A DNA stretch of 64,000 nt from a virus: the IMG/VR virus record IMGVR_UViG_3300041411_000074, positions 25,365 through 89,364 of that record, one strand, 5' to 3'. Under the pieces are notes generated by a model. The model was not told where the DNA came from. It saw nothing but the letters and a program-made list of their open reading frames with translations, and made no database searches. The translations under genes were made by a program, and so were the position numbers. Of the stretch, positions 5,461-60,983 are shown in pieces (position 1 is the first letter of the stretch; the number at the start of each line of letters is the position of its first letter).

Positions 5461-6114
5461 TTAATAATAGATTAATTCATTAGAGCGGTCAACAACTGTT
5501 TCATCTATTTTTGAGTAGTTTTCATATCGTTCAATCAGAGCTTTTGCTACACGTTTATCTGATTGGCTGTCTGCCAATACGTGTGCTTGATCCAGCTTGA
5601 AAGCCAACCATACTTTGTGTGCCGTATCGGGAGAATCAAACCACCCTAGATTGGTCTGTTTGCCCGTTGTCACTGAGACACACTGAGCCCTATACCTGCT
5701 GGCCTTTTTGTCCCAAGAGACACCTGTAGGCAGTTCTTGCGTGTTGTTAGATCTTTCTAATATAAATAAATTTATTCTCTGTTCAATAAATAAGCATGTC
5801 TCAGGGCTATAAACTTTATTGTCTTTAACTAACAAGTCTTTATCTAGCTGCTTCCCTTGCCAATCCTGTTCTTCCATCCAAGCTTTGAATTTCGAGAAAT
5901 AGAGCCATTCATCACAAACCGAACAGTCTGCATATGTACTGAAGCTAGAGTGGTAAACTTCGGAGTAAGCCCTTTTTAACATGGCACGCCATCTTTCATA
6001 AAATGGGCAGAACCAAGTTTGGAATTGTTTTCCATCAACCATTTTGTTTTGTGTTAAAGAATAGTCCGCATCATTAATACCAACACCGCACACTAGTTTG
6101 TTTCTTTTACGCAT
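5461..6114 (-). CDS. HNH-like/AP2 putative homing endonuclease (GVGINDADY...LDKD family)
   Basis: CPFY.RW..ML.R, LDKD.L..NK.YSPETC and an AP2-like P.GV.W...Y.A...LG.F C-terminus. Confidence 0.7.
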   Translation of the reverse strand: MRKRNKLVCGVGINDADYSLTQNKMVDGKQFQTWFCPFYERWRAMLKRAYSEVYHSSFSTYADCSVCDEWLYFSKFKAWMEEQDWQGKQLDKDLLVKDNKVYSPETCLFIEQRINLFILERSNNTQELPTGVSWDKKASRYRAQCVSVTTGKQTNLGWFDSPDTAHKVWLAFKLDQAHVLADSQSDKRVAKALIERYENYSKIDETVVDRSNELIYY

Positions 6115-8853: not shown

Positions 8854-9537
8854 TCAGACGGACTTAACTTCTGTCCTCTTGTTAGCATTTAATCGCAGAT
8901 TGGCAGCCCTGTCAAGCAATTTTTCTGCAACAAGCAAAGAGAAATTCTCCGCTTCGCCAGCCAGTCGCCACTTTTCAATTGCGGCTTCAATTTGCACAGC
9001 CTTAGCCATACACCATGCTTGATGAGCAGTTAGAGGATCTTGAAACACGCCAAGGTAGCGTTTACCTTCACCTTGAACTCTGGCTACGTACCGATCACTG
9101 TATCCGCTGACAAAAGTTACACCAAGGGGCAGATCTACTAGGCTTTTGTTGTTAGATGACACTAACATATTTATATAGTTTGGAACAAAGCAGCAGGTGT
9201 TAGGGCCATATTCTTTGTTACCTTTAATAAGTATATCTTTGTCTATCTCCAAACCTTCCCAAATCTGAACTTCCATCCAAGCCTTGAATGCGCTAAAGTA
9301 TTTCCAAACGATGTTTACAGTTGTTCCCTCAAGCACAGGTCTTTTAGAAAGCGTATTCTTGCTATAACCTCTTTTGACCATAGCGCTCCACTTCCTATAG
9401 AATGGACACATCACAGATTTATTTCCAACACGTATAGATACTTTGTAATCCGCATCATTGATACCCCATCCAGATACAGTTGGAAATTCTTTAGGTTTGT
9501 TTAAACCCCTATTTCTTGTGTACTTTGTTTTAGACAT
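8854..9537 (-). CDS. HNH-like/AP2 putative homing endonuclease (LDKD family)
   Basis: GWGINDADY, CPFYRKW, IDKDIL..GNKEYGPNTC, AP2-like C-terminus. Confidence 0.7.
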   Translation of the reverse strand: MSKTKYTRNRGLNKPKEFPTVSGWGINDADYKVSIRVGNKSVMCPFYRKWSAMVKRGYSKNTLSKRPVLEGTTVNIVWKYFSAFKAWMEVQIWEGLEIDKDILIKGNKEYGPNTCCFVPNYINMLVSSNNKSLVDLPLGVTFVSGYSDRYVARVQGEGKRYLGVFQDPLTAHQAWCMAKAVQIEAAIEKWRLAGEAENFSLLVAEKLLDRAANLRLNANKRTEVKSV

Positions 9538-10179: not shown

Positions 10180-10215
10180 ATTCTAACCCAACGAAAACAG
10201 GCCGTCAAGCGGCCT
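10180..10215 (-). promoter_or_regulatory. Terminator hairpin with the -35 box in its loop, plus sigma70 promoter
   Basis: AGGCCG-CTTGA-CGGCCT-GTTTT; TTGACG-17-TAGAAT. Confidence 0.8.
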
Positions 10216-10861
10216 TTTCAATATAAGTAAAGTTTTCATATTTATCAATTAACGCTTTAGCTACACGTTCATCTGTTTGTTGTGCTGCGAGTACATAGGC
10301 TTGCTCCAGTTTAAACGTAAGCCATGCTTGGTGAGCTTCTTCTGGTGTCTTGAAGTGGCCTAAAACTTTTACCTTCCCTGTGACAACAGAACTGCACGTT
10401 GCCACATACTTACCTCTACTCTTGTCGAAACAAACACCAATAGGCCACTCACCACGATCTGCTGCCCGCTCAATTATGAATGAGTTAACTCTAGCGTCTA
10501 CGAAGACGCAAGTATCAGGACCGTAGATCTTATTGCCCGGAAAGAGGATATCTTTATCCAGCTGTTTACCTTCCCAATCTTGAAGCTCCATCCAAGATTT
10601 GAAGTTGCTGAATGTTAGCCATTCTCTCACCACAGAGCAACCTTTATAACTTGGATACTTTGACTGGTAGTTTTCACTATAACACCTCGTCAACATACTC
10701 ATCCACCTACCATAGAACGGACATACCCATACAAGCTTTCGTTTTTTACCGCCTAGGTAACCGATTGTCTTGAACACTTGTACAACATAATCAGCATCGT
10801 TAATACCAACACCGCGCACTAGCTTAGTTCTCTGGTAGCTCTTCAACTTTCTCTTCTCCAT
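10205..10861 (-). CDS. HNH-like/AP2 putative homing endonuclease (LDKD family)
   Basis: Close paralogue of 5461..6114 (GVGINDADY, QDWEGKQLDKD, RVAKALI). Confidence 0.7.
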   Translation of the reverse strand: MEKRKLKSYQRTKLVRGVGINDADYVVQVFKTIGYLGGKKRKLVWVCPFYGRWMSMLTRCYSENYQSKYPSYKGCSVVREWLTFSNFKSWMELQDWEGKQLDKDILFPGNKIYGPDTCVFVDARVNSFIIERAADRGEWPIGVCFDKSRGKYVATCSSVVTGKVKVLGHFKTPEEAHQAWLTFKLEQAYVLAAQQTDERVAKALIDKYENFTYIEKAA

Positions 10862-18802: not shown

Positions 18803-19303
18803 TCATTTCTCGTTCTCCAATTCATCAATCTTATCACTCAACGAGAGCAACCGACTTTCAATGTACTCTTTCTGAGACAACAAGTCGTTATATTCTTTCA
18901 CATACTTCTTCAGCACTGCTGCATTACTAACCTCATTCCCTTTAGGTTTAGCCCACTTCTTCGTACACTGATACCCTACAAACACAATGCCTTCGTAATC
19001 ATCTTTAGCATATTCATGCACAAATTCATAGTCATTCAGGTTGCAGATGAATTCTAAATCAAATCTTCCAACATCAATGTATTTAGAATATTCACGAGCC
19101 AACCCTTCGTGTGTGAAAATGTTTGTGTCTTCTTTGCCATCTTTGAAAGGCCAGTAGTTGTACGTGTCGATTAGGACAATATCACCGTGATCGTCTGTGC
19201 GAGCTACGCAGCGACGATCACGACACCAATAAGGGTCTGATGAAGGGCCGAGGTTAGGTTTCCAACTGTATGAAAAGTAATCACCATCTTTAATTTCTTT
19301 CAT
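18803..19303 (-). CDS. Hypothetical protein
   Basis: 166-aa ORF coupled to denV. Confidence 0.75.
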   Translation of the reverse strand: MKEIKDGDYFSYSWKPNLGPSSDPYWCRDRRCVARTDDHGDIVLIDTYNYWPFKDGKEDTNIFTHEGLAREYSKYIDVGRFDLEFICNLNDYEFVHEYAKDDYEGIVFVGYQCTKKWAKPKGNEVSNAAVLKKYVKEYNDLLSQKEYIESRLLSLSDKIDELENEK

Positions 19304-19695
19304 TTCATCTCTCCCAAACGTTCATTGATACGTTGACGACTAATTTCAATAGCTTCTTGTGTAGGAACATAATCTCCAAACCACCAGTTATTGATTCCTT
19401 CAATCAAACTGTCTTTTTCAATAGGATTTACTTTATATCCACGACTGACAGCTTCATTGCACAGAGAGTAATACCTCTTGGTGATGAAGTCAAGCTTATC
19501 ATACAGAAACAAAACATGACCTGTACCCATTGTGTAAGCTGATGGCTGCTTGATCTTATCTTTGAAATTGTACTTGTTAATCTTACGAGCTTGTGCTTTG
19601 CGGACTAGACCAAAGACACGAGTGATCTCATGCAATTCTCCGAGCAAGTGCTTATTGTGCAATTCAGATGGTGCGATAACATTGATTCTTGTCAT
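19300..19695 (-). CDS. denV: Endonuclease V, pyrimidine-dimer DNA glycosylase/AP lyase
   Basis: MTRIN...L...HL..E..EITRVF...Y.MG.GHV.F.YDKL..RY..L..E...RGY, as in T4 DenV. Confidence 0.92.
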   Translation of the reverse strand: MTRINVIAPSELHNKHLLGELHEITRVFGLVRKAQARKINKYNFKDKIKQPSAYTMGTGHVLFLYDKLDFITKRYYSLCNEAVSRGYKVNPIEKDSLIEGINNWWFGDYVPTQEAIEISRQRINERLGEMK

Positions 19696-19728
19696 GACAA
19701 AGCTTCTGTGTGAGTAGCTGATGTGAGA

Positions 19729-19764
19729 ATCATACAGACAAAAGAAAAGGCCGTCAAGCGGCCT
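19729..19764 (-). promoter_or_regulatory. Terminator hairpin with the -35 box in its loop, plus sigma70 promoter
   Basis: AGGCCG-CTTGA-CGGCCT-TTTCTTTT; TTGACG-17-TATGAT; 17-bp core identical to 10199-10215. Confidence 0.8.
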
Positions 19765-20241
19765 GTGGGGTTGGGGTAGCATATAAAATAAATTTATTTT
19801 AATGTGCATATCTCTTCGTTCAAGTGTAGGACTGTGATACTCCCTCTAAAAAGCTTTACTTCAAACTCTCCGTTGTGACTATTTCTGCTTTCTATTCGTG
19901 AACGTAACAATGCCACCAAACGGTCATCGATTGCTTCTCCAAAGTGCTCTTCTAAGAACTTAGAGATGACCGTTTTTAAATAGAACCTTCTTTTCATCTC
20001 CACTTTGTTCATTTAAAATCTTCCTCTGTAATTTTAGGATATTCCACTTCCATAACACGAGCCTGAATGTCATCACGAAACCTAAACCACTCTTGTTCTG
20101 TGCTTGAGTACCAGAAGGAAACGTTGTTAACTCTCTTTACGTAGTTTAGTTCTGTGAATATACCAAGCTCATCATAAACAGAGACGAAGCATTCAGACCA
20201 GAAATCGTTTGGTAGATCTGTTGGTTTTATCCAATTGTTCA

Positions 20242-21597
20242 TTATTTCTTACTCACAAAGCAAAATTGATTATCACCCACTTCCTCTTTCCATGCATTCA
20301 GCATAATAGAGTGGAGTTTGTCTTCAGCACTTGCACGACAGATGAAACTGTCATGATAAATCAAAAGGTTTTCTCCTTCTTGAATCATGTCTGATACTAC
20401 ACGGGCTGCAATATTGCTGTCAATATTCATCAGTCGCATACCGGCATCAGTATAGAAATAATCTTCAATCAAATAATTATGTTTACGAATAGCCTCACAA
20501 ACGTCTAGCACTTTGGTAGGTTTGATAATCCCAACAAACTTCTTATCTTGATCTTTCTTTTTAGTGTCTTGGAACAGCTTATTACTTACTGCGCTAACTG
20601 CTCCTGTACGATCAATTGCGTTAATAGAGATGAGCAAAGCTACTTTAGCCAGATTGCGCACAGGATCATATGTAGTCAAGCCATACTTTTCTTTGTGGTC
20701 ATCAATCATTTCCTGATCAATCTTTACAATCTCTGAAAGATCAGCACCATATGGCTTGAAGTCTCGACCAATAATATCCCAAACATTGCAGTCATACCCT
20801 CCACTTAGATTCAGCCGTTCTAAACAGAGCATCGGGTGGATTGATGAGTAGTCGAGTTCACAAACAGATTCCCCACCAAATGTCAGATACTTAGAACGAT
20901 ATTTCTCAGGAAGAAGCTGCACGCCGCCACCTGATACAAAGAAGCGTCCAGACTCTTGCAGACTATTGCTGTATACACGTTTGTACTCAACTGTTGCAAC
21001 ACGTTTGCCTTTGAATTCAATACTAGCGTCTTTCAAGCTGTCGTTTAACACTTTAACACCCTCTCTCAGTGTGGTGATACCATTACGTCCACGAAGGGAC
21101 TTGTTTTCACCTGTCTTTCTGTTACGAATTTCAATCATTTCATCAGCCTCAGTGTTAGGCATCAATACTAAATCAATTGTATCCCACAAAGCAAGGTATT
21201 TTTCTTTAAATTGTACAAAAGATTTAACTGTTTTGGTTGGATTACCTTTGGTATCTGTTTCTTTTACAAATCCTTTATAAATGTCAATAAACTGACACTC
21301 CTCTAGATGGTAGAGAAGGGCAGTCACAACACGATAACCAATGTTTTGATCATTAGAGCTATAGTAATTAGAAGATAATGAGATATAGAAGCCTCCAGCT
21401 TTGTTCCTAACTGCCTTAGCACTATTAGTTACAAACCAACGGATAGCTTTCTCCCACCTACCATCTGTAACAGTAAGGAGATACTTCACTACACCCTCAT
21501 ACCATACACTTCTGTGATAATACAAGCTACTATCTGTATTAGTAATCATAGCTTCATACATCTGAAGATCATTCATCTCTCTTAAATCATAAATCAT
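20242..21597 (-). CDS. Pol A / T7-RNAP-superfamily nucleotidyltransferase lacking an exonuclease domain
   Basis: SGRFF, ELDYSSIHP (motif A), RNLAKVALL (motif B), IYHDSF (motif C). Confidence 0.7.
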   Translation of the reverse strand: MIYDLREMNDLQMYEAMITNTDSSLYYHRSVWYEGVVKYLLTVTDGRWEKAIRWFVTNSAKAVRNKAGGFYISLSSNYYSSNDQNIGYRVVTALLYHLEECQFIDIYKGFVKETDTKGNPTKTVKSFVQFKEKYLALWDTIDLVLMPNTEADEMIEIRNRKTGENKSLRGRNGITTLREGVKVLNDSLKDASIEFKGKRVATVEYKRVYSNSLQESGRFFVSGGGVQLLPEKYRSKYLTFGGESVCELDYSSIHPMLCLERLNLSGGYDCNVWDIIGRDFKPYGADLSEIVKIDQEMIDDHKEKYGLTTYDPVRNLAKVALLISINAIDRTGAVSAVSNKLFQDTKKKDQDKKFVGIIKPTKVLDVCEAIRKHNYLIEDYFYTDAGMRLMNIDSNIAARVVSDMIQEGENLLIYHDSFICRASAEDKLHSIMLNAWKEEVGDNQFCFVSKK

Positions 21598-23063
21598 AGA
21601 CTCGATATCCGGTAATGGTCTTATATAACATTTACACCTCTAGGCCACGTAATACAAGGCTCTCAGGAAAAGAAATCATTTATTCGCTCCACTGAATCAC
21701 AATCTCATCAGTCTTGTAGTCATGAAACTCAAAGTATGTCAACCCATCTTTAGGCTTAGGGTCTAACACACTGCCGTTACAAGGAAATCCTTTCTCTTTC
21801 AGGAGATGCATGATTGAATAGTTAGGTGGCTGGTTTAGGATATCATTCATTCCTATACGGATTTCTTTAATCATCGTTTCATACTCTCTTTTGTAGGAAA
21901 CTCCCAACCATTATCTTCACAAGTCTTCTTCCAAGCCTTGTCTTTGAAGCTCTCATCTTGCAGACGTTCATAAATGTATAGTGGTAGGTGAATCCAACCA
22001 TCGTAGGACATGGATTCAAAAAGATCCTTCAAATCACCCTTGTTGAAAGCGTATACTGTGTTCTTGTCTTCCATATCAATCTCCTCAATTTGTACAGCCA
22101 TAATCTCACATTTACCCCTCAAATAGCAAGGAAAAGAACATGGTATTATTTCAAGTGGTTAGTGGTTAAGTTGAAGGATATTCATGTTGTTTAATCCTCA
22201 ATCCCATCATCAAAATGTCTACGAATCAAATACTGTCTCCACTCTTCACTCACTTCATAATCTTTCTTTGTGTGGTTGTCAAAGAATCCAATAGCCCAAC
22301 CACTGCTACTGATGATACCACCTTCTCGGATAGGCTTCCCCCAAGATTCCTCAACATTCAATACTTCACCTTGAACATATGTGGATGCAAGATAGCGTGA
22401 TTTACTGAGGACAACTGAAGAGTATTTCTTTCCTGAATGTAAGTGTGTGACGTACCAAGCTTTAAGATTGTTCATTGCAAAACTCCGCTAATCACATCTT
22501 CATACTGCTGAATATAATCCCTCATACCCCTTTCAAACTGATACGAGGGTTCCAGATTACCACAGTATTCAATAGAACCACCTTCAGGATAGATGAACTT
22601 AAGCCGTCCAGCATAACTGTTCTCTACAAAAGCTTTCTCTTTGTAATGTTCCTCAGCTTGCAAGAAACCCTTCCACCACATTGATTTCTGCATCACTCTT
22701 CTCCCTTCCAAACCACTTCATAAACAGGACACACATCAGACAGCTTCCTGACATACGTATCATAATCCATAAAATTCCCTACAAGGAAGAACACCCCCTG
22801 ACTATTCATGACAAGCATCTCCTTCTCTTTGAGCTTAAGCTTCTGTCCCGTGGATGTGTCGATTATTTTGAATTTCTTTTTCATTTGTTATTCTCCTAGC
22901 ACTTTCGTGGTATAATTAATAAACTCATCTGACTCAGCAAGCTTTTTCTCATACAGCTCTGCATACTCTTCTGGAAACATCCAGTCAACCAAATTTTCTG
23001 CTGTACTCCTAGACATTTTCCAGCAGAGAAGGCTTATACAATACCCTCTAAACTCTTCATAAT

Positions 23064-23258
23064 TCATTTGGCATCAGCCTCGTAAGCATCATAGACGTGT
23101 ACAAGCATACCGTTCTCAACAAGTTTATAGAAATTCATGTTATGCTGAGTGGCTTCGTGTACAGAACCTTTGTTGGTTTCCATAAAGGAACGAGCATCAG
23201 AGTCAGTCCAGTGTTTGCCATGCAGTTGAAAGTGGTTACTTCTGAATTTAATGTTCAT
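23064..23258 (-). CDS. Hypothetical protein, first gene of the leftward block
   Basis: AAGGAG RBS and promoter. Confidence 0.7.
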   Translation of the reverse strand: MNIKFRSNHFQLHGKHWTDSDARSFMETNKGSVHEATQHNMNFYKLVENGMLVHVYDAYEADAK

Positions 23259-23284
23259 GGTGTGTCTCCTTGATTGATGTGCCT

Positions 23285-23313
23285 AGGATAACCTCATCAC
23301 CAACCCCTGTCAA
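23285..23313 (-). promoter_or_regulatory. Leftward sigma70-type promoter of a divergent pair
   Basis: TTGACA-17-TATCCT. Confidence 0.75.
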
Positions 23314-23348
23314 CCCCATTTCGAAAAATCTTCTGACAGAGTGTAGAT

Positions 23349-23413
23349 AAATCTACCAAACAAATTTGCTAGACAAATCTACTGAATGAATTTACCAAAT
23401 GAATTTGCCCAAG
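23349..23413. repeat. Five tandem imperfect 13-bp repeats
   Basis: aaatctaccaaac|aaatttgctagac|aaatctactgaat|gaatttaccaaat|gaatttgcccaag. Confidence 0.75.
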
Positions 23414-23460
23414 GGGTTTCCCTAAATAGATCGCCTAGAATAATATTTTTAAATCATTTC

Positions 23461-23489
23461 TTGACAGGTGGAGGGATGTGGTGGAGAAT
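23461..23489 (+). promoter_or_regulatory. Rightward sigma70-type promoter of a divergent pair
   Basis: TTGACA-17-GAGAAT. Confidence 0.75.
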
Positions 23490-23526
23490 TGGTGTATCTG
23501 AAAAGCAACGTAGAGAGGAAAATATA

Positions 23527-24369
23527 ATGGAAATTAAAGCTTACGCCTGTAAACACTGTGAATCAATCTACAAGACAGCGCAGAAAGCATCTGCCTGTGA
23601 AAAGAAATGTGTAGCCCGTATTGCAGAGGAGAAGACTGAGGAGGAACGTCAGGCAAACCTTCAAACTCTTGTGAATTACGTTCGTCTGAACGCAGAGTCT
23701 ATAGAAGATATCTGCCGAATGTCTGAGGAAGTAAGCCTCAAGTTGTTCCCCAAATCCTCTATCAAGAAGATGAAGCTTCGTGTTTCTTACGCACCACATG
23801 CTAGTAACTCTCATTCTGCACCTCTCGGTGAATTTGAGAATTGGGGACGCAAGGAAGGTAAACCTACGGGATACCCAGCACTTAGAGGTTCAATTACTGT
23901 AGTGTACAACAAGGAACCTAAAGGTTTTTCTTCAAGTACCTTCAATTCTCGTGATGGTATTTGTGGTATTCACACAGGGGATGGTGGCTATCGGTCAGGG
24001 GATGGTGGCTATACTGTGGGTTATGACGTAACCCTCTGGTTGTCTGATTTTCCTAAGATCAAAGCTGCAATTGAGGCTAAACAAAAAGAGATTGATAGTT
24101 ATGAAATTTTTCGTTCCAAACTTTCTGGCGAATACATCGACCAAGTGAGCGCAGATGCTGAGATTAATGCTGCCAAGTCCAATATCGAAGACTTTGAAGA
24201 TGAAATCCGAAAACTACGTGAGCTGATCGCTTGTGAGCAAGGTATTATCAAGGACAAAAAAGAAAACTACTCAACCCCTAAACAAGAAATTCTTGACAAA
24301 GAGTATGAGAAGACTTCTAATGATTTTGGTCTGAGTCGTGGTCAGCAATCATTGACAAGCATCTGGTAA
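23527..24369 (+). CDS. Hypothetical protein with an N-terminal Zn finger and C-terminal coiled coil
   Basis: GAGG RBS; YACKHC...CEKKC; SNSHSAP.G...NWG motif. Confidence 0.8.
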   Translation: MEIKAYACKHCESIYKTAQKASACEKKCVARIAEEKTEEERQANLQTLVNYVRLNAESIEDICRMSEEVSLKLFPKSSIKKMKLRVSYAPHASNSHSAPLGEFENWGRKEGKPTGYPALRGSITVVYNKEPKGFSSSTFNSRDGICGIHTGDGGYRSGDGGYTVGYDVTLWLSDFPKIKAAIEAKQKEIDSYEIFRSKLSGEYIDQVSADAEINAAKSNIEDFEDEIRKLRELIACEQGIIKDKKENYSTPKQEILDKEYEKTSNDFGLSRGQQSLTSIW

Positions 24370-24975
24370 AACCTCTTGACCCCTCACAAACAATGTGACA
24401 AGATACTGTGACTGAAGCGCTTACGAGTAAGCTAATGTAAGCAAATAAATTTGACTAATTATTAATGTAATGCTATGCAGCGAAAGCTATTCGAAGAGTG
24501 GCGGCTGTGGGAGAGATGGGATGATTTCAGGATATGTGTTAGCAAGGCAAACTGCTGTAGAAATGCCTAATGGTGCTCGTAGTGAGCTAGGTTATACACT
24601 TTTGGATGGTGTTGGCGTATTTCACTCTATTGAAGAGGTGTACGAAGTGATCAAGGACTTGAACTTACCTCTTGGCTGGGTAGCTATGTCGGTGGACCAA
24701 CTTCTTCCGGGTTATATGCTTCCAAAGGAGAATAAATAATGAGAGTATGTCAGTCAATTCAAGAGCTTCTTGATGAAGAGCTAAGCCAAATGTGGGAAGG
24801 TTTGGACTATGAAGGTCTGAATGTGGAAGCTACGAAAGAGTGGTTTGCAGGGACAGATATTTTTATTCAGATTCTTGATAAACTTAAAGAAGAAAATAAG
24901 CACCTATCATGATTGATGAACATATGCAGCAATTAATTGAGATGGAAAAATAAATTGAATGGGTGGGAGGAATAA

Positions 24976-25209
24976 GTGATGAATTGCAAATGGAGACATG
25001 TTGACCTAGGCTGGCGGTGTGGTACAATCTACGAAATGTGTGATGAAGCTGTTCAGGTTGCGAAATTGTTGAACACACAAGTATCATTTACTTTCAACGG
25101 TGTTCGTGTTAATGTCAGCAACCAAAGTGATGTTGAAGGTGTTTCTTTTCAAGCAATGGAAGCTGTAAAGAATAAAACTGATGCAGTCTTTGGGAAGGGG
25201 TGTCACTAA
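24976..25209 (+). CDS. Hypothetical protein, paralogue of 11464..11742
   Basis: GGAGG RBS; VSFTFNG motif. Confidence 0.65.
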   Translation: MMNCKWRHVDLGWRCGTIYEMCDEAVQVAKLLNTQVSFTFNGVRVNVSNQSDVEGVSFQAMEAVKNKTDAVFGKGCH

Positions 25210-25514
25210 TGGCTATGATTAATATCACTAAAGATTATCGCAAGTATTCTAGTGAAGAACTTCGGTCACTTGCATATTCAGGCTTGCTTGAGTGTAACGG
25301 GTATGATCTTGACTCGTTCCTTGAATACATCTTTCAGGACATGCACAGCGAACAAGACTTGAAAGAAGCCTTAGAGGAAGGTAAGAAGGAAGCACTTGAC
25401 AGTGAAATTAGTATTTGTTCAGAATGTGAAGAAGAGATTTATGGCTGAACATCCTTGCTATTCTTGAAGCAATTTGATTAATATTCTTTGCAGGGTGTTG
25501 GAGGGGAGAAGAGC

Positions 25515-27272
25515 GTGAGTAACAAATACGGCATTGATACATCCCATGAACACAAGACAGGATGTCCAAGGTGTATTCGAAAAGGTGAGGACAGGTCCAA
25601 GAATAATTTGCACGTCTATGGAGAAGGTAAGGGAGCTTTCTGTTGGGCGTGTGAGTTTACTATTCCAAGTGATGAGTGGCTTGCCGAACATGGCGAAATT
25701 AAAGATGAAGAAGAGGAGTTTGATTACATGGGTTCTGAGTTTAACCAAGAGATTCACAATAAATTGAAAGAAAACACGTCAGTAGACCCTAAAGGTTGGA
25801 GGGGTCTACGCCGTGATACTTGTGCCTACTTTGGTGTTCGTCACTCCTTCAACACTGAAACAGGTGAGATTGAAAAACAATATTATCCAACTACCCAGAA
25901 CTACGAGTTGTCGGGTTATAAGGTTAGGCATGAACCAAAGGATTTTGGGGCAATTGGCATCACTGGTAAACAATGTGAATTATTTGGACAATTCCGGTTT
26001 CAGGATGGCAAGGGCAAATATATTCTGTTGGTAGCTGGCGAAATCGACGCCTTGAGTGCCTACCAGCTCCTTGGTGATTATCAGAAATCCAAAGGCTTTG
26101 AACCTATTCCTGTAGTTTCTAGTACTATTGGTGAAGGAGGAAGTGCCAAACAGGTGCAACAGCAGTATGCATTTCTGGACCAATGGGAGCGAGTCCATAT
26201 TTGTTATGACAACGATAAAGCTGGCAAGGAGGCTGCTGAGAAAGTGGCTAAAGTTTTGCCTAAAGGTAAAGCATTTATTGTCAACCTAAGCTTGAAAGAT
26301 TGTAATGAGTATCTTGTGGCAGGGAAGAGTAAGGAATTTATCAAAGCTTTCTATGATGCCAAGGGCTATACCCCGAACGGTATTGTTGGTAGTGGTGAGC
26401 TTTACCAAAAAATCCTTGATGAGGTGGAAGCTGACAAAATCCCTTTTCCACCATTTATGAAAAAGCTCAATGAAATGACTGCTGGTGGTCTGAGCTTGGG
26501 GAAGCTGTGTAACATCGGCGCCGCCACAGGATTAGGGAAGACAGTTTATGTGGACTCAATTATTTACCATCTTATTTTCAACAGTCCATACCGTGTTGGT
26601 GTGGTGAGTATGGAACTTAACAGTGGTCAGTATGGTCTATCTATGTTGTCTCGACATGTTGGTCGGAAGATTGCCAACATTCAGGATAAGGAAGAGCGTA
26701 GTAACTATTTGAAGAGTGATTACGTCCAAGAGAAGCAAAAGGAGTTGTTCTTTAAAGCGGACGGCTCACACCGTTGGCACTTGGTCGATGATCGGGATGG
26801 TTCAATCGAGGATATGAAATCTCTCGTTGAACAGTTGGTTATTAGCTGCGAGTGTAAGGTAATTGTACTTGATCCATTGCAAGACATTCTGGATGGTATG
26901 AGCAACGAAGATCAAGCTTTGTTCCTGAAGTGGCAGAAAGGTTTGATTAAGAGCCACAACATGAGTTTCATTAACATCAATCATGTCCGAAAAAGTGGCA
27001 ATTCTTCGCAATCAAACTCTAACGGCGGGATGATTACCGAAGAGGATTTTGCTGGCTCAAGTACAATTATGAAATCTGCTGCACTGAATATTCTCCTAGT
27101 GAGAGACAAGATGAATGAAGACCCTGTGATCCGCAACACTACCCGAGCTTTTCTTAGTAAGAATCGGGATAATGGTATTACAGGCCCAGCAGGTTCATAT
27201 TACTACAATAATGAAACCCACCAACTTCAAGATTTTGATGAATGGTTAGAGGAAAATCCACAGGAGTTTTAA
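25515..27272 (+). CDS. T7 gp4-like DNA primase-helicase
   Basis: Zn finger CPRC..CWAC, TOPRIM (GEIDA, YDND, KDCNE), Walker A GAATGLGKT, SF4 motifs. Confidence 0.95.
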   Translation: MSNKYGIDTSHEHKTGCPRCIRKGEDRSKNNLHVYGEGKGAFCWACEFTIPSDEWLAEHGEIKDEEEEFDYMGSEFNQEIHNKLKENTSVDPKGWRGLRRDTCAYFGVRHSFNTETGEIEKQYYPTTQNYELSGYKVRHEPKDFGAIGITGKQCELFGQFRFQDGKGKYILLVAGEIDALSAYQLLGDYQKSKGFEPIPVVSSTIGEGGSAKQVQQQYAFLDQWERVHICYDNDKAGKEAAEKVAKVLPKGKAFIVNLSLKDCNEYLVAGKSKEFIKAFYDAKGYTPNGIVGSGELYQKILDEVEADKIPFPPFMKKLNEMTAGGLSLGKLCNIGAATGLGKTVYVDSIIYHLIFNSPYRVGVVSMELNSGQYGLSMLSRHVGRKIANIQDKEERSNYLKSDYVQEKQKELFFKADGSHRWHLVDDRDGSIEDMKSLVEQLVISCECKVIVLDPLQDILDGMSNEDQALFLKWQKGLIKSHNMSFININHVRKSGNSSQSNSNGGMITEEDFAGSSTIMKSAALNILLVRDKMNEDPVIRNTTRAFLSKNRDNGITGPAGSYYYNNETHQLQDFDEWLEENPQEF

Positions 27273-28355
27273 ATGGCAATTAAGTATTTAGAAATTGGCC
27301 AAGTATTAGAAAATAAACAAGGTGAGAAGTATGTAATTGAAGGTCTTGACCACTGTAAATCAGTTAAGGTTAGATTCCTCTCTAATAATTCTGTAAAATA
27401 CACTACTGCAAATTATGCTTATCGTGGCATCGTCCGCATGGAAAGGGTTCTTGTCGGTGAACAATATTTGGATAAGAATGGGGAAACAATTACTGTAGTT
27501 GGCAAGACTAAACAAGATGATATTACAATCCAATGGGATGATGGCGAAACGCGCTCGACAAATGCCTATAGGATTGAGAATAGGCTTGTGATTCGGACCA
27601 ATGACAATAAGCATGTTAATCCAACCGTAAAAGTTGGGCAAATATACGTTAATCGCCAAGGTTCAGAAATCAAGGTTCTTGAATACGAAAATTCAACCAA
27701 GATTTTAGTGGAGATTGGCGAAAGAAAGTACCAGCAATATGTACACGCAGGGAATCTGATATCACTAAATGTACATGACAAGTATGCACCATCTGTTGCA
27801 GGTAAAGGTATTTTTGGAGATGCAGAAGTTGATGTCAAATCTCAAGTCTATACTTCTTGGGCTGGGATGTTAAAACGCTGCTATACTTTTTATGATGATA
27901 AACCAAGGGCAAGAATCAACTATGAAGGCTGTGAAGTCAGGGAAGATTTTCTGTATCTTCCAGATTACATGGCTTGGTATGAGAAACAAATTGTTCAGCC
28001 AAAGTGGCATCTTGACAAAGATCTTTTGGTTCCCGGTAATAAGATCTACAGCCCCGATACGTGTGTGTTTTTACCAAGAGCTTTGAATACGTTCTTAACA
28101 GTCAGGGGTAATGAACGCGGACCATATCCAATCGGCGTTACTTACCATGAACGTCTAGGGAAATATGAGGCTTGCTGTAATCGGGATGGTAAGAGTGTTT
28201 ATCTTGGGCTTTATTTAAATCCTGAAGATGCCTTTGAAGCTTACAAGAAAGAGAAGGAATCTTACGCGAAAGATCTTGCAAAGCGTTGGGAAGGGGTGAT
28301 AGACTCTCGGGCTTGTGAAGCACTGATGAATTATAGGGTTTTAATTACCGATTAG
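27273..28355 (+). CDS. HNH-like/AP2 putative homing endonuclease with three N-terminal repeats
   Basis: Three G(Q/E)..(N/K).G..I.V modules; W.GMLKRCY, LDKDLL..GNKIYSPDTC, AP2-like end. Confidence 0.7.
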   Translation: MAIKYLEIGQVLENKQGEKYVIEGLDHCKSVKVRFLSNNSVKYTTANYAYRGIVRMERVLVGEQYLDKNGETITVVGKTKQDDITIQWDDGETRSTNAYRIENRLVIRTNDNKHVNPTVKVGQIYVNRQGSEIKVLEYENSTKILVEIGERKYQQYVHAGNLISLNVHDKYAPSVAGKGIFGDAEVDVKSQVYTSWAGMLKRCYTFYDDKPRARINYEGCEVREDFLYLPDYMAWYEKQIVQPKWHLDKDLLVPGNKIYSPDTCVFLPRALNTFLTVRGNERGPYPIGVTYHERLGKYEACCNRDGKSVYLGLYLNPEDAFEAYKKEKESYAKDLAKRWEGVIDSRACEALMNYRVLITD

Positions 28356-35517: not shown

Positions 35518-36420
35518 TTGAGTGAAGTAGAATGGAAACAACAGGCAATTGAATTAGCAAAGACTGGTAAAAGTTGGAGAAAGATTGCAGAATTGGTAGA
35601 CAAACCACGCTCAACTGTTTCTGATTACTTGCGTAAAGAGTTCAGCCAAGTTGTTGTAGACAACCGTCGTTCTTCAGAAACTTATTCTGTACGAAAGAAC
35701 GATAAAGTTGAACATGACAACAGTCGAATCTTGTTGATCAGTGATTTGCATATTCCTTATCACCACCAAGATGCTATTGCTTTCTTGAAACACTTGAAAG
35801 ATAAATATAACCCAACACGAGTAATCTGTTTAGGGGATGAGGTTGATGGTCACGCCTTGAGCTTCCATGATAGTGATCCAGATTTGCCAAGTGCTGGTGA
35901 CGAAATTCGTCAAGCTTTGCCTGTTATTGCTGAACTATTTAAAATCTTTCCAAAGATGGATATTCTTGAAAGTAATCACGGTAGTTTGGTGTGGCGTAAG
36001 GCTAAAGTATTTGGCATTCCAAAGCACTATATTAAATCTTATAATGAAGTGCTGGGCGTAGACAGCGGTTGGAAATGGAGTTTTGATCTTACTGTAGACT
36101 TACCTAATGGACAGAAATGCTATATGCACCACGGTAAGACAAGTAATATTATTCAACTAAGTCAACAGATGGGCATGAATGCAACTCAAGGCCACTACCA
36201 TGAAACATTCAAGATTGATTATTGGGGCAACAGCACAGGACTTTATTGGGGTATGCAGTGTGGTTGTCTTATTGATGATGACAAACTTGCATTTAATTAT
36301 AACAATGTAAATATTAAAAGGCCGATTATTGGGACAGGGTTGATTATTGACTCTATGCCTGTGTTGGAGCCAATGCGGCTAAACTCAGAAGGAAGGTGGG
36401 TAGGTGCAAAAGTCAATTGA
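35518..36420 (+). CDS. Calcineurin-like metallophosphoesterase with an N-terminal HTH
   Basis: DLH, GDEVD, SNH, HHG, GHYH motifs; SWRKIAELVDKPRSTVSDYL HTH. Confidence 0.88.
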   Translation: MSEVEWKQQAIELAKTGKSWRKIAELVDKPRSTVSDYLRKEFSQVVVDNRRSSETYSVRKNDKVEHDNSRILLISDLHIPYHHQDAIAFLKHLKDKYNPTRVICLGDEVDGHALSFHDSDPDLPSAGDEIRQALPVIAELFKIFPKMDILESNHGSLVWRKAKVFGIPKHYIKSYNEVLGVDSGWKWSFDLTVDLPNGQKCYMHHGKTSNIIQLSQQMGMNATQGHYHETFKIDYWGNSTGLYWGMQCGCLIDDDKLAFNYNNVNIKRPIIGTGLIIDSMPVLEPMRLNSEGRWVGAKVN

Positions 36421-58252: not shown

Positions 58253-59059
58253 CTATGCGTATTGAAAATCAGGATGATTTTCTTTTATTCTTGAATGGAT
58301 AATATATTTAGAAAACCCAGTATTTTCTGTGGCTTCTTTAATACTACCATATTTAATATTTTTAATAATTACGACAACTGCACTGGGATGCTCGGAAGGG
58401 ATTTTATTTTTACCTAGGAGCTGGTTACCACCACGCCTTTGTGGGATAAACTCCTCCACATCCCCACGAGAATACCTTGACACTAGGACAGAATAAACTT
58501 TATTCAATGCTTTAGCTGCCACATTAAAACTTGGGAACCAAAAACCACTAATATATCTTGGTGTTTGAATAAGTTTTTCAATACCCTTGTTACTCTTAAC
58601 ACTGTAGTTTTGAACAATATTTCCCAGTGTACCACGACGTTTCCTATTCTTATAAACATCGACAGTCATATCCAGACTTTTAAGCGCTGACCTTCTACTG
58701 GGAAACCAGAATCCACTTACAAAAGTTGGGATATCACGTTTAGTACCATTAACAGAGTAACCACGTCCTGATTGACCGCCCGGTTTGATATTGTAGCCAA
58801 ACTTCTTTTCACAAGTTCTGTACAGAGTAATTGCTTTTACTTCCAGCTCAAGAATATATTCCTTACTACCAATACAAAGTATTTCAAAAGAAAAGTTCTC
58901 CCTTCCATACTTATCCATGGCCTTGCGAATAATAGAAAATGCACTGTGTCCAGTTTTGGAGAAATGTCTTTGTTTTCTCTTCGTAGGTTCAGAAGTGATA
59001 CCAATATACATCTTATCATTAATCTTATTAACAATCTTATACAAGTAACAGTTCTTCAT
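58253..59059 (-). CDS. GIY-YIG homing endonuclease (Seg-like) between sheath and tube genes
   Basis: YLYKIVN...MYIGIT, R...H, E, GYNI..GG; repeated G.WFPS...A DNA-binding modules; AT-rich. Confidence 0.88.
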   Translation of the reverse strand: MKNCYLYKIVNKINDKMYIGITSEPTKRKQRHFSKTGHSAFSIIRKAMDKYGRENFSFEILCIGSKEYILELEVKAITLYRTCEKKFGYNIKPGGQSGRGYSVNGTKRDIPTFVSGFWFPSRRSALKSLDMTVDVYKNRKRRGTLGNIVQNYSVKSNKGIEKLIQTPRYISGFWFPSFNVAAKALNKVYSVLVSRYSRGDVEEFIPQRRGGNQLLGKNKIPSEHPSAVVVIIKNIKYGSIKEATENTGFSKYIIHSRIKENHPDFQYA

Positions 59060-59124
59060 AGAGCCCCCTAAATAAAATGATTTAGCATCATATCACCTAA
59101 AAGGCTCTTCGTAAAGCTAAATCG

Positions 59125-60408
59125 TCATACGCTGAGGTAAAATTGGATTGCAACACTGCGAATTGCACCTTGCAAACGAGCCCGAATAACAAATACACCA
59201 GCAGCACGTTGCGCACGAAGAGTTGCAGGGATCGACAATACTGGAGGCGTTTGCACGGTCCAGCCAGAATCAATCATGCCGTTGCTTTCAGCCAAGGACA
59301 GTACAGAACGAATTTCATTCTCTACAATCAGAAGGCCGGGATCAGTCATTGGAATTTTAAGGCTGTTAATGATGCGGAAATAGATACCTTCCTGAAGTCG
59401 AGCTTTAAGCCAGTCCTTAGAAATTTGAATATCAATTGGCTTGGCATCAAACATGTTACCGTCTTGGAAGACATCAACACCACCTTTACGGCGGAAGAAG
59501 TTCCAGGATTTAGCACGCAAGTTGACAATCTGAGTCGAGCTAAGGATGCTACGAGTAACGCCTACAGCACGCTTAAAGTCCCAGTCGTTAGAGCCCGGAG
59601 TTACAGCCAACTGACTGCCAGACCAAGCAAGCTCAGGGAATTCAGTTGCAGCAGTTGCAGACCATACGCCAAAGGTACGACCAGCAGATTTAGCATTAAG
59701 TTTGTAGCCAATATCTGTAATACCGGTGGTAGGTGCAACAACGTCAGCAGAGGACAGACCGTAGATCTTATCCATTGCTTGAATGGTATCGGACAGAGCT
59801 TCTTGTTCAGCAACTACTTGAGTTTCAGCAGTCAGTTCATACCAGATGTCATTATCAGCATCAACGGCAAGAAGAGCAGCAGGCCAAGTTTCAGTGGCTG
59901 TGTTTACACCAACGAGGTTTACCGAAGTCAGAACACTCCAAGCTGTACCGGGTACAGTGGCTGCCAGAGTCAGGGTAGTTGTGCCGCCGACTGTAATACC
60001 AGTTGGTGTACCAATAGCAGCTTTCAGACCAGTTACGATAGTAGTGGCTGTAGCACCAACACCTGATGTGAAAGTATAAGGGGTGCCATTAAGAGTAACA
60101 GTATAAGCAGTGCTATCAGCAACGGTTGGTGTAAATACTACACTATCTACTTGACGACGACCAACAACGATAGATGGAGGTGGGGCACCAATTACAGAAT
60201 CTTGGCCAAATGCCTTGCTAGCCATAATGTAAACATTACTAGTAGTAGCGAAATCACCACCAACTTCAGTAATATTTAGGTAGGTACGTGCACGTTCAGC
60301 AAAATTAGTAAACGTAGCAAGGATAAGGGGAATTGCGAAGCTAGTCGTAGCAATAGCAGTGGTCTGATCGGTAATAACAACCGAAACTACATCATCCAAA
60401 TCGGACAT
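59125..60408 (-). CDS. Tail sheath protein (DUF3383-like)
   Basis: PGS..W.FK..GV, ID....DWL..RLQE, KIP.TD.G. Confidence 0.9.
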   Translation of the reverse strand: MSDLDDVVSVVITDQTTAIATTSFAIPLILATFTNFAERARTYLNITEVGGDFATTSNVYIMASKAFGQDSVIGAPPPSIVVGRRQVDSVVFTPTVADSTAYTVTLNGTPYTFTSGVGATATTIVTGLKAAIGTPTGITVGGTTTLTLAATVPGTAWSVLTSVNLVGVNTATETWPAALLAVDADNDIWYELTAETQVVAEQEALSDTIQAMDKIYGLSSADVVAPTTGITDIGYKLNAKSAGRTFGVWSATAATEFPELAWSGSQLAVTPGSNDWDFKRAVGVTRSILSSTQIVNLRAKSWNFFRRKGGVDVFQDGNMFDAKPIDIQISKDWLKARLQEGIYFRIINSLKIPMTDPGLLIVENEIRSVLSLAESNGMIDSGWTVQTPPVLSIPATLRAQRAAGVFVIRARLQGAIRSVAIQFYLSV

Positions 60409-60440
60409 AGGTATTGTGATCCTTTGTTATGTAGCCTTTG

Positions 60441-60983
60441 CTACGGATAAATGATACTTTCTGGAATTTTTATAATTACTGGAATCTCTGAAGCCTCATC
60501 AGCAATGACTACGCCTTCAACAACGTCAACAAGTTGGTCAGTAATAGTGATGTAGTTAAATGTTACATCAAGATTATGATACTCAACCCATTTGGTATCT
60601 CTTTTCTGAGGTGCCCTACGAATCTGGCTTTTCCTCATCAACCCCAATTTATTTCTTTGTAACTCTAAACGAGTAAGGGGGTTGTTATTAATGTTCTGTG
60701 TGAAGCTTTGGGACATATCGCCACTCAAACTTCCAATAAAACTTAGTTGGCACATGACTTCATAAGCTACTTGAAACGTCAGTGTCTCGTTAGTGTTAGC
60801 TAAAGTAGAAGTACTGTGATGACCCTGTTGTTCAATATTCAATATATTTACAACAACATAACTCTCAGCAGGCTCGGTTCCGTTCGAATTACTGAAAATC
60901 ACGATAGGGTTTGTAAATTCTGATAGGGCTGATAGGGCACTTCTACGAATGGCAGCTCTAACGTCTGTGTAAATACCTGCCAT
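60441..60983 (-). CDS. Tail terminator/neck protein
   Basis: Synteny upstream of the sheath gene. Confidence 0.65.
   Translation of the reverse strand: MAGIYTDVRAAIRRSALSALSEFTNPIVIFSNSNGTEPAESYVVVNILNIEQQGHHSTSTLANTNETLTFQVAYEVMCQLSFIGSLSGDMSQSFTQNINNNPLTRLELQRNKLGLMRKSQIRRAPQKRDTKWVEYHNLDVTFNYITITDQLVDVVEGVVIADEASEIPVIIKIPESIIYP

Follow-up and report, generated by a model that had tools for sequence, protein, structure and literature searches.

Why should a phage that already encodes a complete family A DNA polymerase and a primase-helicase carry one more protein with polymerase motifs? The question is raised by a 64,000-nt stretch of viral DNA, here called the window, which spans positions 25,365 to 89,364 of IMG/VR record IMGVR_UViG_3300041411_000074, a complete virus record of 89,364 bp. 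In it, an earlier reading of the letters (hereafter, the original prediction) had singled out an open reading frame (ORF) of 451 amino acids (aa) as a second Pol A-fold enzyme, one lacking an exonuclease, in a phage that has a PolA and a primase-helicase already. The ORF was confirmed by translation and lies on the minus strand, which had been left unstated, and both replication genes were recovered with Pfam (Table 1). Our analysis indicates that the ORF very probably encodes an active polymerase of the divPolA2 family, its activity being predicted, and that the most likely role of the enzyme, which we put forward tentatively, is the site-specific synthesis of primers at a replication origin.

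The 451-aa protein as a member of the divPolA2 family

The name divPolA2 was introduced by Yutin, Tolstoy, Mutz, Wolf, Krupovic and Koonin (2024; Virol J 21:200, PMC11348598) for a diverged PolA that was recognized in the genomes of 110 barbaviruses before it was met in other phages. As described there, these proteins possess an active palm, no homologous thumb, no exonuclease and a globular domain at the N-terminus for which no similarity could be found; they sometimes occur as two or three paralogues per genome and their gene neighbourhood is variable. The roles proposed in that paper are a repair DNA polymerase (DNAP), which was the first suggestion, or an RNA polymerase (RNAP).

We found that the family profile has a single match in genome MG592441.1 (25478-26668, minus strand; E-value (E) 1.9e-47), which falls inside CDS AUR84708.1, the published prototype, and on this ground the 451-aa ORF is a divPolA2. 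Compared directly by BLASTP, the 451-aa protein and AUR84708 are 21% identical across 256 aa (E 5e-5). The original prediction treated the enzyme as unprecedented; the ORF is instead a new member of a kind already in print since 2024 (PMC11348598) and partly anticipated in 2008. In the literature that we searched, the term divPolA2 occurs in the 2024 paper and its preprint only. The 451-aa protein shares with the proteins described by Yutin et al. (2024) an active-looking palm, the lack of an exonuclease and, apparently, of a canonical thumb, an N-terminal globular domain and the same structural neighbours among RNAPs, e.g., 6ymv. Its gene is likewise extra to that of a regular DNAP, stands in a variable neighbourhood and has relatives with paralogues. 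In contrast to barbaviruses, where the regular DNAP is a PolB, it is here a PolA.

The protein matches phrog_4756, a PHROGs family of unknown function (E 4.5e-74), and no Pfam family at E ≤ 10, RNA_pol and PF00476 included. In sequence searches of the PDB neither the protein nor the family profile found anything meaningful, and the ESM Atlas returned unnamed clusters only. Of the relatives in the representative library (50%-identity clusters), 2673 reach E ≤ 0.001, 452 reach 1e-10 and 67 reach 1e-30. Cultured phages carrying the family infect Vibrio, Aeromonas, Pseudoalteromonas, Shewanella and Pseudomonas.

Conservation was assessed on 144 distinct sequences (85 from the library search, 54 IMG/VR loci and 5 named phages). 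R218, R234, D249, Y283, K318 and D416 are invariant; H415 and G217 are each kept in 143 sequences, H254 and R314 each in 141 (R314 being Lys in the other three), N326 in 137 and S417 in 132, while Asp393-Ser394 is conserved alongside His254, Asn326 and Tyr283. Both Asp residues on which the original prediction leaned, D249 and D416, are therefore kept throughout the homologues. The match to phrog_4756, the 2673 representatives and the retention of both catalytic Asp in 144/144 go far beyond chance; judged from these alignments, selection maintains the catalytic function of the enzyme.

The motifs SGRFF, LDYSSIHP, RNLAK and IYHDSF, quoted in the original prediction, all occur in the canonical order, and their spacing can be compared with that of the co-resident PolA. 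Motif A of the latter reads GDAAALEGR with Glu462 at D+5, where the 451-aa protein has His254 (D249+5); motif B is K527-x3-Tyr531-x3-Tyr535-Gly in PolA and K318-x3-Leu322-x3-Asn326-Ala in the 451-aa protein; and motif C is HDE in the former and HDS in the latter. The two exchanges claimed beforehand, of Glu by His in motif A and of YG by NA in motif B, are borne out by this comparison. The equivalence of N326 to the motif B Tyr is supported by the alternatives found at this position, which are Tyr in five sequences and Phe in two. Thus, at sugar- or dNTP-selecting positions, the co-resident PolA has Glu, Tyr, Tyr and Glu, and the 451-aa protein has His254, Leu322, Asn326 and Ser417 in their place. 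The complete His/Asn/HDS signature is present in 124/144 family sequences. Such a set fits a substrate other than that of a replicative DNAP, with a presumed effect on sugar choice.

The published prototype differs at the three positions of this signature. AUR84708.1 (MG592441.1; L085:970-2262, minus strand) is the sole sequence among the 144 with Glu/Tyr/FDE, whereas the 451-aa protein and 141/144 relatives have His at D+5, most of them together with Asn and HDS. In its sugar-selecting residues the prototype is thus an exception within this alignment, and the divPolA2 family may comprise two substrate types.

The assignment to the Pol A fold is supported by an AlphaFold2 model of the protein, built on 85 relatives (predicted local distance difference test score (pLDDT) 95.9; predicted template-modelling score 0.92). 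Foldseek comparison with the PDB, which had been suggested as a check together with structure prediction, yielded 155 matches at E ≤ 0.001, of which ranks 1-50 are all family A DNAPs (best 8jrb_A, 3.2e-7), and a palm fold is predicted. A VIA-align comparison against 48,161 chains placed PolA DNAPs or T7-like, mitochondrial and N4 RNAPs at all of ranks 1-20, matching model residues ~150-451. Z-scores among DNAPs were 14.0 for the apicoplast polymerase (root mean square deviation (rmsd) 4.3, 243 aligned), 13.5 for Aquifex Pol I and 12.3 for Klenow, and among RNAPs 12.4 for the yeast mitochondrial enzyme, 11.1 for T7 (3e2e), 8.6 for N4 mini-vRNAP and 7.0 for N4 RNAPII (6dt7). DNAPs and RNAPs are tied in these structural matches, so that the substrate is not told by the modelled fold.

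The fold matches cover model residues ~150-451 only and residues 1-150 form a small separate domain, so no exonuclease domain is predicted. Between the N-terminal domain and the palm the model has one clear helix (174-189) plus a hairpin, in which R218 is placed between strands 205-210 and 218-221; the thumb, as modelled, is much reduced. The likeness to family A DNAPs is one of shared fold only, without a match to Pfam PF00476 or to a PolA profile: hhalign gave 0.1% with the co-resident PolA and the same value with a PolA profile of five sequences.

The N-terminal DNA-binding region of the original prediction can now be described as a separate domain of winged-helix-like shape, DNA binding itself remaining a conjecture. 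Residues 1-150, modelled alone, reached pLDDT 90.1, and the order of elements (H49-64, E69-72, H76-79, H88-100, hairpin 104-114) fits a winged helix. The structural neighbours listed are mostly winged helices, with a best VIA-align Z of 6.0 (rmsd 3.6, 83 aligned) and none reaching 8; they include MarR, CRP/FNR, CodY, Fur/PerR, PadR, ORC/Cdc6, DnaD, TFE, kleisins and eS10-type ribosomal proteins. From the model, a winged helix at the N-terminus is likely, and we infer that it would bind DNA. Yutin et al. (2024) report no similarity for this domain, whereas here it weakly resembles a winged helix.

Relation to TV-Pol, CCPol-MP and T7 RNAP

The anticipation of 2008 concerns the TV-Pol elements, for which Iyer, Abhiman and Aravind (2008; PMC2579912) named the Microcystis phage Ma-LMM01 as a carrier. 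The sole match of our family profile in Ma-LMM01 is gp030, a 506-aa protein whose gene adjoins two transposase genes, and since it is the only match in the genome and has such neighbours, we take it to be the TV-Pol of that paper. When the family was aligned with gp030 and six homologues, hhalign gave a probability of 82.4% (E 1e-5); the alignment has 174 collinear columns, which join the GR hairpin, GGGxQ, the motif A Asp and His, the Lys of RxxxK, the Asn and the HD of motif C; with gp030 alone it reached 52%. The gp030 clade also has His at D+5, Asn at K+8 and HDG. Given this profile link, as against 0.1% for PolA, and the common residues, the divPolA2 family has the appearance of a branch, in phages, of the wider TV-Pol group.

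Like TV-Pol, the 451-aa protein has a minimal core of PolA/T7-RNAP type with the β-hairpin Arg, two palm Asp, the RxxxK of the fingers and no nuclease. In contrast to TV-Pol, no fusion to a D5-like helicase and no transposase or resolvase neighbour was seen for it, the two-helix thumb of TV-Pol is not evident in its model, and the N-terminal domains of the two (gp030) did not align. A search for fused family forms at least 822 aa long came back empty, a negative of little weight.

To our knowledge, CCPol-MP is the only assayed primase of the PolA fold. It belongs to SCCmec, a mobile element, and comprises an exonuclease-less family A polymerase which, with an attached DNA-binding module (MP), starts chains de novo in primase assays (Bebel et al., 2020; PMC7581432). 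In contrast to the 451-aa protein with its His254 and Leu322, CCPol is described as keeping E710 and F762 of Pol I and as using dNTPs (PMC7581432). It further needs MP, a separate OB-fold protein, whereas the divPolA2 gene has no conserved small adjoining partner. An MP-like partner was considered and dismissed on grounds of synteny, since the 77-aa ORF overlapping the gene's stop codon is not conserved and has no counterpart in phage M1 (E 5.4), and since 17/58 is the largest number of loci in which any one neighbour family occurs. Because a reclassification of 2023 groups CCPol beside canonical PolAs, the CHEAPs (PMC10201439), CCPol is a functional analogy and not a close relative.

With T7 RNAP and N4 RNAPII the protein has the fold in common. 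HDSF is also the form that motif C takes in T7 RNAP, an enzyme of ~883 aa in which the motif B Tyr is Y639. The differences from a T7-like RNAP are that the 451-aa protein is about half the size, lacks a Pfam RNA_pol match, and has Asn at the motif B Tyr position (137/144); in addition, no repeated promoter-like motif was found.

Gene context, repeats and the ICP1 homologue

Two blocks set out from the divergent region 23259-23385, the replication block rightward and a block of small ORFs leftward; the divPolA2 gene is the seventh ORF of the latter (Table 1). For the gene context of the family we compared 58 loci, i.e., 63 minus six with partial matches (L041, L056, L066, L072, L075 and L077), plus the window; genes were called crudely, as greedy longest ORFs of at least 40 aa, and the operon-head counts are therefore approximate. 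The gene is first after a divergent strand switch in 22/58 loci and first or second in 35/58, the median distance to the switch being 359 bp (51 loci), while seven of the 58 have no switch inside the 5-kb flank. The position is typically at the operon head. A DnaB-type primase-helicase is encoded divergently upstream of the family gene in 5/58 loci. No cluster of D5-like helicases, resolvases, integrases or transposases stood out in the 58 loci; the Pfam scan, made on eight representatives of the neighbour clusters, returned PhoH, AP2, DnaB_C and ClpP and no match for the other four.

A PF00476 PolA is present in all five family-bearing phage records (5/5), and two of the five carry two family paralogues; the genome studied has one. 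Two paralogues each, located far apart, were seen in an IMG/VR contig of 85,586 bp (L023, L053), in NC_048770.1 and in NC_047839.1, and the catalytic residues are kept in those that were aligned (2L372X copy b, J2-1 copy a, L023 and L053).

Table 1. Positions in the window of the divPolA2-family gene, its parts and the features discussed with it
Feature	Position	Strand	Basis or detail
divPolA2-family gene (P0001)	20242..21597	minus	ORF and translation; 451 aa plus stop
N-terminal domain, residues 1-150	21148..21597	minus	separate model; winged-helix-like core ~residues 38-148; putative DNA binding
Linker and reduced thumb region with β-hairpin carrying G217-R218, GGGVQ, R234	20878..21147	minus	model secondary structure, conservation
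SGRFF	20938-20952	minus	residues 216-220
Palm and fingers, residues 241-451	20245..20877	minus	fold matches, conservation counts
Motif A D249; H254	20851-20853; 20836-20838	minus	LDYSSIHP = residues 248-255
Motif B RNLAK; N326	20644-20658; 20620-20622	minus	RNLAK = residues 314-318
Motif C H415-D416-S417	20347-20355	minus	IYHDSF = residues 413-418
82-nt spacer upstream of the divPolA2 gene	21598..21679	minus	sequence, repeat scan
Five tandem 13-bp units	23344..23408		repeat scan, start-to-start spacing 13, 13, 13; divergent intergenic region
T7 gp4-like primase-helicase	25488..27272	plus	Pfam DnaB_C 1.2e-10, Toprim_2 3.1e-10
Regular family A DNA polymerase, 703 aa	28365..30476	plus	PF00476 6.1e-14; Glu D+5, Tyr-Gly, HDE

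The divergent region carries an array of 13-bp units, 1.75 kb upstream of the divPolA2 gene, in which TAGAYAAATCTAC alternates with AAAYRAATTTRC-like units. In order, the units read TAGATAAATCTAC, CAAACAAATTTGC, TAGACAAATCTAC, TGAATGAATTTAC and CAAATGAATTTGC, and exact copies of TAGAYAAATCTAC occur in the window at 23344 and 23370 only. The array was detected by the repeat scan and not called by TRF. We consider it, speculatively, a candidate binding site, operator or origin, its tie to the enzyme being hypothetical. The array extends into the ATG that was called for ORF 23386-24369, so that this start is probably miscalled; after the array, at 23461, there is a promoter-like site, TTGACA-N17-GAGAAT. 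The cumulative GC-skew minimum lies in the 22001-24000 bin.

The repeat scan of the 82-nt spacer upstream of the gene revealed nothing notable. A genome-wide search for a T7-style promoter set found none, the commonest 12-mers occurring in 2/72 upstream regions, and among the repeat families of at least 16 nt none resembles a set of conserved intergenic promoters. The absence of a promoter set in this search argues against a general transcriptase. Sigma-70-like sites around the gene are at shuffle level (16 found versus 13.1 expected).

Several other genes of the window may be mentioned. Between the primase-helicase and PolA genes there is an HNH endonuclease gene (27273-28355, plus strand; phrog_953, E 9.6e-61). 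A pyrimidine-dimer DNA glycosylase (PF03013, E 7.4e-13) is encoded at 19300-19809 on the minus strand, three genes downstream of the divPolA2 gene and in the same leftward block. Three paralogous ORFs of ~220 aa (5461-6114, 8854-9537 and 10205-10861, minus strand) have DNA stretches in common that are 73-90% identical (repeat families D1, D8 and D11); one of the products has a weak AP2-domain match below the Pfam cut-off, and these may be homing-endonuclease-like genes. A 300-aa ORF at 35518-36420 (plus strand) combines an N-terminal homeodomain-like helix-turn-helix (PF13384) with a calcineurin-like phosphoesterase domain. As for the occurrence of the region in sequencing runs, the search with 19000-25000 returned nine rows, all Logan contigs and no RNA dataset among them; two rhizosphere-metagenome runs, one of which may be the source sample, contain at least half of the sampled words, while the cultured relatives come from aquatic bacteria.

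We found a homologue of the 451-aa protein in ICP1, namely gp100/ORF100, which is annotated as hypothetical (tblastn E 5e-16; profile E 1.0e-76) and is located at 58951-60618 in ICP1_2006_E. Coverage of early theta replication in ICP1 was reported to peak "near the 60 kb position" (Barth et al.; PMC7145576), as mapped in 1-kb bins with strain ICP1_2006_E lacking CRISPR and cas2-3. ORF100 is thus at, or within a few kb of, the mapped early-replication peak, which is circumstantial. A review of ICP1 states that no phage RNAP is predicted, that the control of its expression programme is unknown and that its replisome is incompletely known (PMC9040626). No study of the gene emerged from our literature search, which covered ICP1 gp100, the initiation of ICP1 replication and winged-helix family A primases in phages.

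Proposed role in replication

In phage T7, a gp4/gp5-type replisome needs the single-subunit RNAP for origin firing: T7 RNAP makes the first primer at the primary origin. The divPolA2 enzyme is extra to a replisome of this type (gp4-like primase-helicase and PolA), and we propose that it would take the origin-firing part of T7 RNAP in phages that have a T7-like replisome and no T7 RNAP. Its predicted core retains the Arg that contacts the template, the two Asp that bind metal and the O-helix RxxxK. Through the putative N-terminal winged helix the enzyme would dock at one specific site, or at a few, in the phage DNA, the polymerase core would then begin a short chain de novo, with a primer of either RNA or DNA, and the regular PolA would extend this primer while the helicase-primase would load onto the displaced strand. 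We infer the activity, the site-specific binding by the head and the initiation of chains by the core.

Synthesis of origin primers is the role that we favour, with less than firm conviction, because carrier phages have T7-type replisomes without T7 RNAP, because the gene usually lies beside a divergent control region, because the ICP1 homologue is at or near a mapped origin, and because CCPol-MP, an assayed minimal PolA with a DNA-binding module, is a primase. The distance of 1.75 kb between the gene and a divergent region that holds both the 13-bp array and the GC-skew minimum is circumstantial in the same sense.

A number of observations weigh against origin priming. The phage already has a DnaG-type primase domain, and the divPolA2 gene stands among small early ORFs, outside the replication block. 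Its neighbours are not conserved, PhoH being the most frequent (17/58 loci) and an unnamed 137-aa protein the next (16/58), and in the account of Yutin et al. (2024) the neighbourhood is called variable and barbaviruses pair divPolA2 with a PolB, not with a T7-type replisome. The two or three paralogues of some genomes are not obviously needed for one origin. GC skew tracks gene orientation in the window, so that skew alone locates no origin. For the N-terminal domain, Foldseek gave no match at E ≤ 0.001, and the winged-helix match is a weak one, under the tool's own caution line of 8. The ICP1 coincidence is loose, given the 1-kb bins, the wording "near" and a reference that may be the deletion strain, in which case ORF100 would, by our estimate, be shifted by ~3-4 kb. 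Our literature search, moreover, found no assay of any divPolA2 member.

Two of the competing explanations were raised by Yutin et al. (2024), and for the 451-aa protein we judge each of them unlikely. One is a minimal phage RNAP serving a subset of phage genes, in which the winged helix would stand in for the N-terminal domain with which T7 RNAP binds promoters. The tie of mitochondrial, T7 and N4 RNAPs with DNAPs among structural neighbours, the HDS of motif C and the loss of Glu at D+5 are in line with it, as is the usual place of the gene at the operon head, which is expected of an early gene; paralogues could differ in promoter specificity, and in ICP1 an RNAP would meet an expression control that the review of that phage leaves unexplained (PMC9040626). 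Against it stand the 12-mers shared by at most 2/72 upstream regions, with no long repeated promoter-like motif found, Asn at the position of T7 Y639 in 137/144 sequences, the lack of an RNA_pol match at E ≤ 10 and, as an argument from size, a length of 451 aa that would be too small for the specificity and intercalating elements of a T7-like enzyme. The other explanation is an auxiliary DNAP for repair, gap filling or lesion bypass. That the best structural matches are DNAPs speaks for such an enzyme, the missing proofreading would suit an error-tolerant one, and the pyrimidine-dimer glycosylase gene three genes downstream is in line with it. In the 58 loci, however, there is no conserved tie to repair genes, and a sequence-specific-looking head with a nearly absent thumb is odd for an enzyme that acts anywhere. 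The active-site residues speak on both sides: the prototype AUR84708 keeps the DNAP-like Glu, Tyr and FDE, whereas His replaces the steric-gate Glu in 141/144 sequences and Asn replaces the motif B Tyr in 137/144, and a repair DNAP fits the prototype better than it fits the His/Asn/HDS majority.

We consider it very improbable that the protein is some other nucleotidyltransferase, acting in untemplated tailing or in the synthesis of an anti-defence signal or decoy, or that it works with a non-adjacent partner as CCPol needs MP. The unusual conserved neighbours of the active site (His254, Asn326, Tyr283 and Asp393-Ser394) would suit such an activity, and early blocks of small ORFs without assigned function, like the one that holds the gene, often contain counter-defence genes. 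Arg218 and RxxxK, which are expected for templated synthesis, are kept (Arg314 in 141/144, Lys in three), no conserved adjoining partner was found in the loci compared, and nothing in our data speaks positively for this explanation.

Origin priming, if it applies to the family at large, leads to a broader and more doubtful proposal. The divPolA2 proteins with the His/Asn/HDS signature might constitute a third, PolA-fold class of phage primase/initiator, in which a winged helix puts a thumb-less mini-polymerase on the origin to make the first primer, possibly of RNA. This would explain the firing of theta origins in ICP1-like and related phages that have T7-type replisomes without T7 RNAP, and the same chemistry might operate in transposon TV-Pols of the gp030 type.

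Whatever its substrate, the enzyme ranks among the smallest polymerases predicted for the PolA/T7-RNAP fold, with unusual conserved residues where the choice of dNTP or NTP is made, and it represents a very large family that has neither a Pfam model nor a PHROG function. New to the family are the profile link to TV-Pol, the weak winged-helix match, the His/Asn/HDS signature, the operon-head position and the coincidence with the ICP1 origin. If the protein is an RNAP, its size of about half that of T7 RNAP would make it of interest as a tool enzyme; if it is a primase, a second assayed example of a family A primase, after CCPol-MP, would follow. PLE satellites hijack the replisome of ICP1, which serves as a model among V. 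cholerae phages, and if gp100 primes replication, the unknown initiator of ICP1 would be identified.

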